Shown here: one piece after another, positions 2-61,996 of the stretch | Layout: every line of letters begins with the position of its first letter | Position numbering within the stretch: position 1 is the first letter of the stretch | Virus record (IMG/VR): IMGVR_UViG_3300027816_000055 | Reading direction: 5' to 3' (one strand) | DNA from: a virus | DNA: 64,000 nt | Notes under the pieces: generated by a model | The model's input: the letters and a program-made list of their open reading frames with translations, nothing else | What the model was told of the DNA's origin: nothing | Database searches by the model: none | Made by a program: the position numbers and the translations under genes

Positions 2-1810
2 ACTCCATCCACAATTATAGTTCATTCCATACCTTTAGTATGGAATGAACTTATTTCTAACAGTAAATTTAACATTACTGATAAAACACAGATTATTGGA
101 AGAACCGTTTGGGAGTTTGAAAAAGTACATCCTGATTGGATTGATAGTATTAATAACAGTGTTGTAACTCATGTTAGCGTTCCCACTGAATGGAATAAAA
201 ATATATTTTTAAAGGCAGGTATATTTAAGCCTATTATTGTTGAACCGCATATATTTGTTGACTTTCAAAATCAATTATATACGATTGAACACTTACTAAA
301 GAAAAGTGTAGTTTTAATAAAATCTGACATTAAATTGTTAAATATAAAAGATTATTATAAATTCTATTGTATAGAACAATTGACAGATAGAAAGAATTTA
401 ATTGCAACATTGCATTCTTATTGTAAAGCATTTAAATCAACTGACAAAGTTGCACTATTTTTAAAAACATTTAGATCAAATTATTCAATACAAGAACAAG
501 TCGAGTGTGCTAAATATTTAAATGAATTATCTGCTCAATATCCCGATCACGCACCTATTGTATATATTAAAGAACAATTAAATCATGATGAAGTACACAG
601 TATGCATTATCATTTTGATTGTTATGTAAGTTTAACTCACACTGAAGGATTTGGTCTTAGCATTTATGACGCATATAAACACAATAAAAATCTTATTGTA
701 ACTGGATATGGAGGTCACGTTGAATATTTAGGAGAAAATTATTCGGGATTGGTCAGATATAACACATCCCCAGTAAATTCATACATAACTCAAAAACATT
801 ATTTAAATGAAGATTATGTATGGGCTAATGCTGATGAAAATCATGCAATTGAACTGATGCAGAACGCGTATCAGAATGGAATGGAATCAGAAAAATATTG
901 TGTATCAAATTTTACATTAAATAATAATTCCATACCAATTCAAATTCAAAATTCAAATGTTAAGTTGTTAAACTTACCATATGATGCAAATAATTTTTAT
1001 TTTAATCCAGCAATATTTAAATTTAATAATAATAAATATTTGATGACTAGATATTGCCATATTGATGAAGATAAAATTCCACATAACACGTTAAAATTAT
1101 TTAACTTAAATGAAGGAATAAAAGAAATTCCGTTAAAAATTAAAGATGAAGTTCAAGACGAACAATATGAAGATCCAAGAGTATTAATTCATCAAAATAA
1201 AATTTATGTGGGATGTGCAAATTATCAATTACATGTTTCTGAAAAGATACATCAAAAAATATTAGTATTTGATAGTGCGTTTAATCATATTGAAAATATT
1301 CATCCTGTATATGACGGTAATTCATCTAATTGTTTAAGTAATACTCGTTCCCAAAAAAATTGGACATATTTTGTACATGATGATAAAATTCTATGTGTGT
1401 ATCAAATGCATCCACACACAGTTATAGAATTTGATAACACCGGTCGTATATTGACTGAATACAAAACTTTTGTTGATATTACTAAAACATGGCGCTTTGG
1501 AGAACCGCGCATGGGCAGTAATCCAATTCTGAAAGATGGTATATACTATAATTTCTTTCATAGTAGCGTTCCTTGGAAAAATCCTAAACGACAATATTTT
1601 ATGGGATATTATACATTTGAAGCTAAACCTCCATTTAAAATTATTGAAATCTCAAAGGAGCCTATTATTTGGGGAAATGAATCGGATTTTAGATTTTTAC
1701 CAAATTTTAATCCAATTGTTGTATTTCCATGTGGAGCTATTTATGAAGATAATAGTTTTTATGTTAGTTTTGGATTTAATGACGAAAAGACAGGAATTAT
1801 AAAATTATGA
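2..1810 (+). CDS. 5'-truncated GT4-like glycosyltransferase fused to a C-terminal GH130/GT91-like beta-propeller domain
   Basis: Frame is open from base 2 (GRTVWEFEKVHPDW). GT4 motif LTHTEGFGLSIYDA; C-terminal YEDPRV, QKNWTYF and VVFPCG motifs. Confidence 0.75.
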   Translation, partial: TPSTIIVHSIPLVWNELISNSKFNITDKTQIIGRTVWEFEKVHPDWIDSINNSVVTHVSVPTEWNKNIFLKAGIFKPIIVEPHIFVDFQNQLYTIEHLLKKSVVLIKSDIKLLNIKDYYKFYCIEQLTDRKNLIATLHSYCKAFKSTDKVALFLKTFRSNYSIQEQVECAKYLNELSAQYPDHAPIVYIKEQLNHDEVHSMHYHFDCYVSLTHTEGFGLSIYDAYKHNKNLIVTGYGGHVEYLGENYSGLVRYNTSPVNSYITQKHYLNEDYVWANADENHAIELMQNAYQNGMESEKYCVSNFTLNNNSIPIQIQNSNVKLLNLPYDANNFYFNPAIFKFNNNKYLMTRYCHIDEDKIPHNTLKLFNLNEGIKEIPLKIKDEVQDEQYEDPRVLIHQNKIYVGCANYQLHVSEKIHQKILVFDSAFNHIENIHPVYDGNSSNCLSNTRSQKNWTYFVHDDKILCVYQMHPHTVIEFDNTGRILTEYKTFVDITKTWRFGEPRMGSNPILKDGIYYNFFHSSVPWKNPKRQYFMGYYTFEAKPPFKIIEISKEPIIWGNESDFRFLPNFNPIVVFPCGAIYEDNSFYVSFGFNDEKTGIIKL

Positions 1811-53763: not shown

Positions 53764-54147
53764 TGGTGGACGTGGAGGAAGTTGAATCCTCGTCTTTAAC
53801 ATTTTACCCATACCAGACTACATGTTTATTCATTTTGAATTTATTCGTGGCAATTCTAATAAATGAAAAACAAAATTGCCCTTAAGATTGCTCAATGTTC
53901 AACAATACAACACAATCCGATTATATCGTTTACTCTGATAAATGGCGTTTACATCAGTATCAGATATTCTGATATAAACGGGCTACCAGTAAATTAGGCA
54001 GCAACAGCGACTTCATCATAGTTGAAGTCATATGCAATTACATTGTCTTCTGCATTTAGGTTTTTAATGGATTTTTTTAGGAAGCCAACCATCATCTTCC
54101 ACATGCCTAGCATGACTAGTATATTAAATCGAAACCAGTACACGCCC
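53764..54147 (-). ncRNA. ssrA: tmRNA; tag reading frame 54053-53994 (AEDNVIAYDFNYDEVAVAA)
   Basis: GGGCGTG/CACGTCC acceptor with G3.U70, ACCA end, T-arm GAGG-ATTCAACTT-CCTC, tag ending in AA-TAA. Confidence 0.93.
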
Positions 54148-54153
54148 GTAAAA

Positions 54154-54342
54154 TTATATTTCTGTATTAATAGATTGTGCTTTTTCAGCATCAAAATTTT
54201 TTAATGCCTGATAAACTTCTTTCAGACACGAATACTCACTTTGATCCATACCCGGCATCACACTAACTCTTAAGTTAGAGTAATTTTTTTCTTTACAAAT
54301 TTTGTTTAATTGGTGTTTATACCAGTCATTGCTTTTTTTCAT
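54154..54342 (-). CDS. Hypothetical protein
   Basis: MKKSNDWY..., coupled to the Sir2 gene. Confidence 0.5.
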   Translation of the reverse strand: MKKSNDWYKHQLNKICKEKNYSNLRVSVMPGMDQSEYSCLKEVYQALKNFDAEKAQSINTEI

Positions 54343-55079
54343 ATTATTGATTCCTCTAATACTTGGCCACAACTTTCTCGTAAAACAAGTGCGGCAAACT
54401 TATCAAACGCAGTAGGAGTATTGTTGATAATTACCAACTTGCATTGTGGATTACGATCCAACAACAAATTGCATGCTGGCATAACCTGTAAACTACTGCC
54501 AATTGCAATCAATAAATCACATTCAGCAATTGCTTTTTGTGCCGTCTCAAAAACAACATCATCCAACCATTCATCAAACAATACCGTGTTTGGTCGAATA
54601 GTTCCAAATGTACAAATTGGACACTTAGGAATTCCTTTGTCATTGAATAAACCAAGATATTGAGAAATATCAAATGTATATTTACATCCATTGGTACATC
54701 TAAAAGATTTACAAGTGCCATGTAATTCTAAAACTTTCTTAGAACCAGCTTTTACATGTAATCCATCAATATTTTGAGTAACAACAGCTTTTAATTTTCC
54801 TTGCTCTTCTAATTTTGCAAGAGCAAAATGCGCTCTATTTGGTTCCTTATCAACCAATTTTAACAACCGTTCCTTGTAAAATAACGATAACAATGCTGGA
54901 TCTTTTCTAAGAGTACGACGAGAAAGAATATCTTCAGGTTCCATTCCTTCAAATGGTCCGCTTGTATACAGCCCACCAACACTACGAAAATCAGGAATTC
55001 CACTTTCGGTGCTAATTCCCGCCCCCGTAAATGCAACGATATTTGTTGCATTATCAATATAACTTTTTAATGTATTCAT
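54339..55079 (-). CDS. Sir2/CobB-type NAD-dependent protein deacylase
   Basis: TGAGISTESGIPDFR, TQNIDGLH, ELHG, Zn Cys pairs, GSSLQV. Start moved to MNTLK. Confidence 0.93.
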   Translation of the reverse strand: MNTLKSYIDNATNIVAFTGAGISTESGIPDFRSVGGLYTSGPFEGMEPEDILSRRTLRKDPALLSLFYKERLLKLVDKEPNRAHFALAKLEEQGKLKAVVTQNIDGLHVKAGSKKVLELHGTCKSFRCTNGCKYTFDISQYLGLFNDKGIPKCPICTFGTIRPNTVLFDEWLDDVVFETAQKAIAECDLLIAIGSSLQVMPACNLLLDRNPQCKLVIINNTPTAFDKFAALVLRESCGQVLEESII

Positions 55080-55084
55080 AAAAT

Positions 55085-55158
55085 TGGCAGGGGATGAAGG
55101 AATCGAACCTTCACTAAGAGATCCAAAGTCTCCTGCACTACCATTATGCAAATCCCCA
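55085..55158 (-). tRNA. trnQ: tRNA-Gln(TTG) copy 1
   Basis: GGAGA-CTTTGGA-TCTCT; CCA. Confidence 0.9.
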
Positions 55159-55265
55159 GTTAAAATTAACCTAACACAAACCGTGCTATTATACGCTAAA
55201 AAGCAATGCGGCACATGCGCCCAAACCCTTATGAAATACTTCTTTCGGGTGTTTGTGTTGAAATT

Positions 55266-55535
55266 GACACTCGCCGTAGCCGATGTTCTGTTCTATTCCT
55301 ACATTTATCTCAATATTTCTATTGGCAATCTGTTAAAGATTGCTGCTCCAACCTTGTCCTGATAACGTGCAGCACTACACTCGGACACTTTAGGATTACT
55401 GCTAATTTGTGGTATTAACGTGCGGTATGTCGTCGTATAACGCTTGAGCGCATCAAACGAAAGCACTCCCAATCATCTGCTGTGCAGCATCGAACTTCCT
55501 CTAAGATATAATCTCAGCGTAGGATCGCTTGTGTC
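55266..55535 (-). ncRNA. rnpB: Compact RNase P RNA
   Basis: CR-I GAGGAAGTTCGATG pairs with CR-V AACAGAACATCGGCT (P4 with bulged U). P1 GACAC/GTGTC; P2 ATCCTAC/GTAGGAAT; P3 CTGAGAT/ATCTTAG; CR-IV-like CCAATAG. Confidence 0.85.
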
Positions 55536-55540
55536 AAAAT

Positions 55541-55615
55541 TGGCTGCTCTTGATGGAATTGAACCACCATTCTCTCGTTCAAAGCGAGTAGTAATAGCCA
55601 TTATACTAAAGAGCA
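55541..55615 (-). tRNA. trnQ: tRNA-Gln(TTG) copy 2
   Basis: CTCG-CTTTGAA-CGAG; TGCTCTT/AAGAGCA acceptor; CCA. Confidence 0.85.
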
Positions 55616-55624
55616 ATATTAAAA

Positions 55625-55700
55625 TGGTGCCAGAATTTGGATTTGAACCACGACAAAAAGATTCAAAGTCTTTTGTGCTAAACCGTTACACCATCGGGCA
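55625..55700 (-). tRNA. trnQ: tRNA-Gln(TTG) copy 3, weak T stem
   Basis: AAAGA-CTTTGAA-TCTTT; mismatches in the T and acceptor stems; CCA. Confidence 0.75.
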
Positions 55701-61921: not shown

Positions 61922-61996
61922 TGGTGCGCCCAGCGAGATTCGAACTCGCAAATATAGTTTTAGAGACCACTGTTTTAACCGTTAAACTATGGACGC
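61922..61996 (-). tRNA. Amber suppressor tRNA (anticodon CTA)
   Basis: GTGGT-CTCTAAA-ACTAT; GCGTCCA/TGGGCGC-A-CCA; TTCGAAT. Confidence 0.92.

Follow-up and report, generated by a model that had tools for sequence, protein, structure and literature searches.

A class-A RNase P-like RNA with a vestigial specificity domain, encoded within a phage tRNA array

RNase P RNA counts as a hallmark of cells. The locus described here raises the question of whether a phage can encode one as well: the first-pass annotation of our window (the whole stretch of 64,000 nucleotides from the IMG/VR record IMGVR_UViG_3300027816_000055) had claimed a compact phage RNase P RNA on positions 55266-55535. That claim is now borne out by a covariation-proven architecture of the class-A catalytic domain, by correspondence with Escherichia coli M1 RNA, by a link to an RNA of the published phage LR756508.1 and by the phage context of the gene. 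We consider it very probable that the locus encodes an RNase P RNA of the bacterial class-A lineage, with a complete catalytic domain (C-domain) and a mere stub of the specificity domain (S-domain); that it is catalytic is inferred. No report of a virus- or phage-encoded RNase P RNA was found in the literature that we searched, including a survey of huge phages, which does not mention RNase P (PMC7162821), and a 2024 review of RNase P (PMC11143913); in a study of megaphages, Rfam showed only tRNAs and tmRNA (PMC8172020).

The window is phage DNA of low G+C content (~30%). It contains members of the PHROG families baseplate wedge, SbcCD-like and thymidylate synthase, and its proteins find their best matches in phages; the baseplate protein shares 41.5% identity over its full length with that of Microcystis phage Mel-JY01, and 38.7% with that of the 484-kb uncultured phage LR756508.1. 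Related IMG/VR contigs of 31-108 kb are rated 9-31% complete and another, of 303.6 kb, is rated 89% complete, from which we estimate that the full phage genome probably comprises ~340 kb.

The RNase P-like RNA lies within a minus-strand array of 14 tRNA genes and one tmRNA gene. As the first-pass annotation had noted, it is embedded in this array, with a tRNA-Gln(UUG) gene on either side and on the same strand (Table 1). All 14 tRNAs and the tmRNA of the window have an encoded 3'-CCA, and 13 of the 15 carry U at position -1. As to a promoter of its own, we found just a weak consensus match, from which the start would fall inside the RNA. Several other features of the array deserve mention. Three tRNA-Gln(UUG) genes are grouped around the RNase P-like RNA (55085-55699, minus strand), and their acceptor stems differ (UGGGGAU, UGCUCUU and GCCCGAU). 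The 107-nt spacer that leads from the RNA to the next tRNA-Gln (55159-55265, minus strand) begins with AAUUUCAACACAAACACCCGAAAGAAGU, which is identical in the relatives L031 and L093 and may be a further conserved element or a processing site. A Sir2-family gene (54339-55079, minus strand; PF02146, E 6.7e-48) is inserted between a tRNA-Gln and the tmRNA, inside the cluster of RNA genes. The phage tmRNA itself (53764-54147, minus strand; Rfam 124.7 bits) encodes the tag peptide AEDNVIAYDFNYDEVAVAA, and tmRNAs with similar tags adjoin the RNase P-like RNA in the relatives L093, L009, L020 and L031. A tRNA with the anticodon CUA (61922-61996, minus strand), an amber suppressor assigned to Pyl by ARAGORN, is present in the window and also in L093; the long open reading frames of the window are open under translation table 11, so that any recoding would be partial.

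Exact-motif scans of viral and metagenome contigs identified 19 distinct homologs, 235 to ~404 nt in length. All of them lie in phage tRNA arrays and on the same strand as the tRNAs; a tmRNA is often close by, and the RNA usually starts a few nucleotides past the CCA end of a tRNA. Their variation in length is limited to P3, the P12-like hairpin, P18 and a hairpin ahead of the 3' strand of P1, and since the differences are not multiples of three, the region is non-coding. We derived the secondary structure from compensatory changes, which were counted on an alignment of 19 sequences (A4). Standard pairs occupy 96.9% of the cells of this alignment, and 36 of the 68 pairs show compensatory change on both sides; none of 500 shuffles reached these values, and sliding the partners by 1-3 columns gave at most 14 such pairs. 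The minimum free energy (MFE) fold is unremarkable (z-score -1.29). The minus strand of 55266-55535 encodes a conserved structured RNA, and its conservation is not due to chance.

The pattern of the family, run against one genome per species for 185,579 species of bacteria and archaea, gave no true copy; its three matches, all in coding DNA, were due to chance. A blastn search of 50,697 GenBank phages with the RNA returned no match, and neither the pattern nor the covariance models R1 (described below) and RF00010 revealed a convincing homolog in Microcystis phage Mel-JY01 or Flavobacterium phage immuto. Some members bear additions of their own. In four of them (L130:48-432, L161:6132-6452, L175:1608-2011 and L159:2173-2568) P3 is extended to ~85 nt, with the internal sequence GAAGUCC..UUCGUGC.UAA common to the first three and a different extension in L159; the extended P3 could be a protein- or RNA-docking module. 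In L020:10174-10577 (also in L120, L121 and L138) an insertion of ~96 nt takes the place of the P18-like GNRA loop, and L127, L169 and L175 have an extra hairpin between the 3' strands of P4 and P1.

Table 1. Elements of the phage RNA and its neighbours, all on the minus strand of the window. RNA position 1 corresponds to window position 55535; pairs separated by a slash are the two strands of a helix.
Feature	RNA positions	Window positions	Phage sequence	E. coli sequence	Remarks
Upstream tRNA-Gln(UUG)		55541-55615			encoded CCA ends 3-5 nt ahead of P1
Whole RNase P-like RNA		55264-55537			55266-55535 (270 nt) in the first-pass annotation; P1 extendable by two U-A pairs
P1, 5' strand	1-5	55531-55535			pairs with 55266-55270 (RNA 266-270); covaries AU/UA, AU/GC, CG/UG; P1b = 8-9
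P2	12-17/234-239	55519-55524 (5' strand), 55297-55302 (partner)			two pairs covary (UA/CG 9:10, CG/UA); 100% paired
P3 hairpin	19-25/29-35	55501-55517			compensatory changes at 4/6 pairs
CR-I and P4, 5' strand	35-48	55488-55501	GAGGAAGUUCGAUG; CR-I AGGAAGUUCGAUG	CR-I GAGGAAAGUCCGGG	U42 bulged; A36-G45 invariant; pseudoknot with 55278-55285
P4 pseudoknot	40-41 and 43-48 with 251-258				8 pairs, 98.6% paired; U42 invariant
P5, 5' strand	49-52	55484-55487	CUGC	CUCC	pairs with 134-137 (55399-55402): CUGC/GCAG, CUUC/GAAG, GUGA/UCAC, CUGU/ACAG; compensatory changes at 3/4 pairs
P6, 5' strand	55-58	55478-55481	AGCA		directly after P5 in phage and E. coli; pseudoknot with UGCU in the L17 loop (162-165, 55371-55374)
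Vestigial specificity domain	59-133	55403-55477			75 nt
P7-like helix	62-65/129-132				one double compensation (L161)
P10/11-like helix	66-67/124-125				2 bp; invariant, so no covariation evidence for pairing
P12-like variable hairpin	70-116 (base 70-73/113-116)				base covaries: GUGC/GCAC, GAAU/AUUC, GGAC/GUCC and others
P5, 3' strand; J5/15; P15, 5' strand; L15, 5' side	134-148	55388-55402	GCAG; UAA; UCC; UAAAG	GGAG; CAA; GGCC; AAAUA	A139-A147 invariant in 19/19
P16; P17; L17 loop with P6, 3' strand	149-153/177-181; 156-158/167-169	55355-55387	L17 UAGUGCUG		compensatory changes at 5/5 (P16) and 2/3 (P17) pairs
L15, 3' side; P15, 3' strand	GGU = 183-185	55347-55354	AGGUU; GGA	GGGUA; GGCU	A182-G193 invariant in 19/19
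Hairpin F	193-211 (193-199/205-211)	55325-55343			compensatory changes at 5/7 pairs; 100% paired
P18-like hairpin, GNRA tetraloop	212-225 (212-216/221-225)	55311-55324			stem covaries; loops GAAA, GCAA, GGAA, GAGA, GUAA
J18/2	226-233	55303-55310	AGAUAAAU	AGAUGAAUGA	nearly invariant
P2, 3' strand; J2/4; P4, 3' strand	234-239; 240-250; 251-258	55278-55302	J2/4 ...ACAGAA; P4 CAUCGGCU	J2/4 ACAGAA; P4 CCCGGCUU
P1, 3' strand	266-270	55266-55270			P1 extendable by UU/AA to 55264-55537
Downstream tRNA-Gln(UUG)		55085-55158			presumed substrate; starts 107 nt downstream of the RNA

The P4 pseudoknot with its bulged U, CR-I, CR-V, P1, P2 and P3 had all been recognized from the sequence in the first-pass annotation; each lies where it had been placed, on the minus strand, and the helices are kept by compensatory changes in the 19 homologs. 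P4 covaries at three of its pairs (AU/CG 9:9, UA/CG 11:7 and GC/AU 16:2), and CR-V together with the 3' strand of P4 reads ACAGAACAUCGGCU (RNA 245-258). The equivalent of J5/15-P15-L15 is UAAUCCUAAAG (RNA 138-148); here the three pairs of P15 (RNA 141-143/187-189) never vary, and hence there is no covariation evidence for their pairing. Evidence for P6 is modest: it consists of a single compensatory pair plus one G-U, and L130 and L179 exclude the alternative partners. The same two homologs ruled out a pairing of 133-136 with 162-165, as well as the local hairpin CUGC-ACA-GCAG (49-59) of the MFE fold: they have GUGA at 49-52, and its complement is found at 134-137 rather than at 56-59. A kissing interaction between the loop of hairpin F (UUAAC) and GUUAA at 117-121 was also rejected, as its variants, inspected by eye, do not compensate. 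Among the 19 phage RNAs the invariant single-stranded stretches comprise CR-I, J5/15, L15 with GGU, J18/2 and J2/4. In bacterial RNase P, these non-helical regions make up the active site and touch the substrate at its acceptor stem, its RCCA end and N(-1) (PMC4919922).

The best-known bacterial class-A RNA, with which the phage RNA can be compared position by position, is E. coli M1 (rnpB, 377 nt; RF00010). We took its sequence from the genome record, and its helix boundaries follow the secondary structure as published. The two molecules are collinear, element by element, all the way from CR-I to the 3' end, and they share the class-A order of P1, P2, P3, CR-I and P4 with the bulged U, P5, the P6 pseudoknot, J5/15, a putative P15, L15 with GGU, P16/P17, a GNRA-capped P18, J18/2, J2/4 with ACAGAA and the 3' strand of P4. 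The core topology P1-P2-P3-P4(5')...P2(3')-J2/4-P4(3')-P1(3') is that of M1, with compensatory changes in P1, P2 and P3, and the long-range P4 helix expected of class A, with a bulged U and formed between CR-I (GAGGAAAGUCC-like) and CR-V (ACAGAA...GGCU-like), is present in the phage RNA. Phage positions 134-148 are collinear with E. coli 243-258; the phage GGU at 183-185 and its flanks are invariant and correspond in position to G292-G293-U294 of M1, in an L15 that forms an internal loop of 5 nt/5 nt, although this correspondence is positional and there are no data on CCA binding. The phage J18/2 sequence AGAUAAAUG recurs unchanged in a genuine Prevotellaceae rnpB (L146). In comparison with M1, the phage P4 is shifted by one (2 bp + U + 6 bp versus 3 + U + 5), J2/4 is longer (11 nt versus 6), an extra hairpin is found between P15 and P18, and P18 is present while its usual docking partner P8 is not; moreover, the gene is virus-encoded, sits in a tRNA array and is not detected by RF00010. 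The phage RNA also differs from class B (RF00011), which has P5.1, P10.1 and P15.1 and lacks P6, P16 and P17: all three of the latter are present in the phage RNA. Hairpin F, which has no counterpart in class A, occupies the place where P15.1 would be.

The main departure from M1 concerns the specificity domain, which had been described as apparently reduced in the first-pass annotation. It indeed comprises only 75 nt, versus ~157 nt in E. coli, and among the homologs its length ranges from 39 nt (L126) to ~190 nt. P8, P9, P13 and P14 are missing, J11/12 (CR-II) is practically absent, and with them the modules that read the tRNA elbow are gone. A CR-III-like stretch does exist within this vestige, as had been claimed; however, the sequence named at the time, ACCACAAA, lies just 3' of the true one, which is GUUAAUACCAC (family form GUUAAYACCAC) and whose E. 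coli counterpart is GGUAAACUCCAC at positions 229-240. The CCAAUAG at RNA 211-217, in turn, had been read as CR-IV-like, which turned out to be incorrect: it is the 5' strand of the covarying, GNRA-capped P18-like hairpin.

Such a resemblance has to be reconciled with the behaviour of the standard models. The first-pass annotation had proposed a search with Infernal and the Rfam models of RNase P, and had held that the lack of a significant covariance-model match would count towards refuting its reading. RF00010, RF00011 and RF02357 gave no significant match, so that this condition is formally met for the family. Cmscan with Rfam 15 at the gathering score reported only tRNAs and the tmRNA in the whole window; at E<=10 no RNase P family appeared in a 411-nt stretch of the window, nor in short stretches of L159 and L126. 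Run against the contigs of relatives, the three RNase P models found nothing but one 5.5-bit noise match elsewhere, and RF00011 and RF02357 had no match on five relatives' contigs. Profile searches with nhmmer failed in both directions (the family profile against genuine rnpB loci, and an rnpB profile against the window). On these failures rests the view that we are dealing with an unrelated, novel structured RNA of tRNA arrays whose likeness to RNase P is convergent or coincidental; other large structured RNAs, among them ROOL and GOLLD, reportedly occur near phage tRNAs too. Yet about fifteen ordered elements, two pseudoknots among them, match class A one to one, and Rfam detected no ROOL or GOLLD in the window, which leaves this view hardly credible to us. 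We conclude that Rfam misses the family because of the missing S-domain and sequence divergence, not because the fold is absent.

Two further tests support the assignment to RNase P. In the first, we composed a descriptor solely out of the bacterial consensus (GAGGAA(A)GU and 5 nt, with ACA[GA]AA, the complement and CU at a distance of 100-500 nt downstream) and applied it to both strands of 1.34 Mb of loci, a background that includes ~110 loci picked for containing the CR-I 14-mer by chance. It retrieved only three genuine rnpB genes and the phage RNA family, a specificity that likewise argues against coincidence. In the second, we used R1, a covariance model built on the family's 3' module (RNA 134-260) and thus partial, not full-length. 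Against the genuine rnpB genes of E. coli, Paenibacillus, a Bacillota MAG and a Prevotellaceae MAG this model gave only noise. Its best genome-wide match in the 484-kb phage LR756508.1 (76124-76220; 28.4 bits, E 0.003, or 4e-5 within the locus) falls inside the sole match of RF00010 in that genome, at 76010-76235 on the plus strand (49 bits, E 7.9e-15, with the S-domain skipped). The latter is below the RF00010 gathering score of 100. The chance that the top match of R1 would land in that 226-nt stretch is ~2e-4; that it lands on an RF00010-positive RNA is again at odds with an unrelated origin. By this coincidence the family is linked to RNase P transitively, through an intermediate in a related phage.

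The intermediate (L194:1387-1612 in our set) is a miniature RNase P RNA of class A, 226 nt long and not annotated in the published genome of this uncultured huge phage; it is located directly upstream of tRNA-Ser(CGA). Like the RNA of the window, it is phage-encoded and adjacent to a tRNA, its S-domain is a stub, and it has AGAUAAAUG in J18/2, ACAGAA, and an L15 of the same kind (GGGUA in this case). Unlike the RNA of the window, it is nearer to the bacterial consensus, lacks P18 and hairpin F, and has a different P4 sequence.

Extensive loss of the S-domain is not without precedent. In Thermoproteaceae (Pyrobaculum), the type T RNase P RNA (RF02357) has nearly no specificity domain but still acts on pre-tRNAs (PMC3579882). 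This RNA is archaeal, as are the type of its C-domain and its protein partners, and it lacks L15 GGU and P6, whereas the phage RNA has both and thereby shows bacterial class-A traits. Reduced RNase P RNAs without P12 and other helices are known from Mycoplasma fermentans and candidate-phyla bacteria, and their detection required lower Rfam thresholds (PMC8172020); these RNAs are cellular and retain a recognisable S-domain core, while the compact phage forms of 235-270 nt have lost more. Finally, the isolated C-domain of the E. coli RNA is catalytic both with and without protein, with an efficiency that depends on a P6-type contact (PMC5839562). That engineered RNA (Eco CP RPR) is a laboratory construct of reduced efficiency; the phage RNA, in which P6 is kept, is the product of a conserved gene that occurs in nature, and it has additional hairpins that stabilise it.

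Does the phage also provide the protein subunit? The first-pass annotation had found no rnpA in the window, and we can confirm this as far as a small HMM allows: based on three RnpA sequences from bacteria and run over six frames, it returned no RnpA. The search for RnpA (PF00825) in the 303-kb relative that is 89% complete, and in two fragments, was likewise negative. Any protein partner must therefore come from the host, a circumstance that could also point to a non-catalytic mimic, which sequesters host RnpA or competes for pre-tRNAs and so skews the maturation of host tRNAs in the infected cell; P2/P3 and J18/2, where the bacterial RNA contacts RnpA, are well kept, which would fit this reading. 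We nevertheless find a mimic very unlikely, given that the nucleotides needed solely for chemistry (the A-A-G-U bulge of P4, ACAGAA and L15 GGU) are invariant over 19 divergent members, none of which would be needed in a protein sponge, and that the gene is placed inside an array whose very products need RNase P.

If the RNA is instead a functional RNase P RNA, as we favour, it would be co-transcribed with the minus-strand tRNA array, released by the processing of tRNA ends and folded around the P4 pseudoknot. It could then trim pre-tRNAs and pre-tmRNA of the phage itself at their 5' leaders, probably together with host RnpA, the use of which is inferred. Substrates with encoded CCA and U(-1) are common to the phage array and to class A; bacterial RNase P recognises substrates of this type by means of L15 GGU and the adenosine of J5/15 (PMC4919922). 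Recognition, by inference, would concern mainly the acceptor stem: the encoded 3'-CCA would pair with GGU, which is invariant in L15, U(-1) would pair with an adenosine of J5/15, and the elbow formed by the D- and T-loops would play little part.

It may be asked whether an enzyme that has lost almost its whole S-domain still acts on tRNAs. A ribozyme derived from RNase P could have kept the core and been retargeted, e.g. to unusual tRNA-like or permuted elements of the array or to host RNAs, in parallel with RNase MRP, which diverged from RNase P; the family-specific hairpin F and the variable insertions in P3, the P12-like hairpin and P18 would fit such a history. We regard retargeting as very unlikely, since L15 GGU, the adenosines of J5/15 and J18/2 are invariant, and all ordinary tRNAs of the array have CCA and mostly U(-1), just as expected for a standard pre-tRNA reaction of the bacterial type; besides, RNase P RNAs consisting of the C-domain only still cut pre-tRNA-like substrates (PMC5839562).

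Taking the window RNA and LR756508.1 together, we are inclined, with little more than even confidence, towards the broader proposal that huge phages carry a working RNase P ribozyme of their own, of 226-270 nt and essentially without S-domain, which matures the CCA-bearing array solely via contacts of the catalytic domain, either with host RnpA or with no protein at all; the activity is inferred. To our knowledge, a phage RNase P RNA of this size would be smaller than any known RNase P RNA of bacterial cells. If the proposal is true, RNase P would for the first time be known from a virus, and the takeover of translation by the phage would be partly independent of host tRNA processing. An active RNA would also show that a recurrent class of phage RNA genes escapes standard annotation, Rfam reporting just tRNAs and a tmRNA in genomes of this kind. 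A possible bearing on the supply of phage tRNAs under host defences that target tRNAs can be envisaged, although this is pure inference. Should the RNA prove active, the translation-related functions of huge phages would extend to a ribozyme, and a natural, minimal bacterial-type RNase P would become available for studies of which share of the enzyme is indispensable and of catalysis in the absence of elbow recognition.
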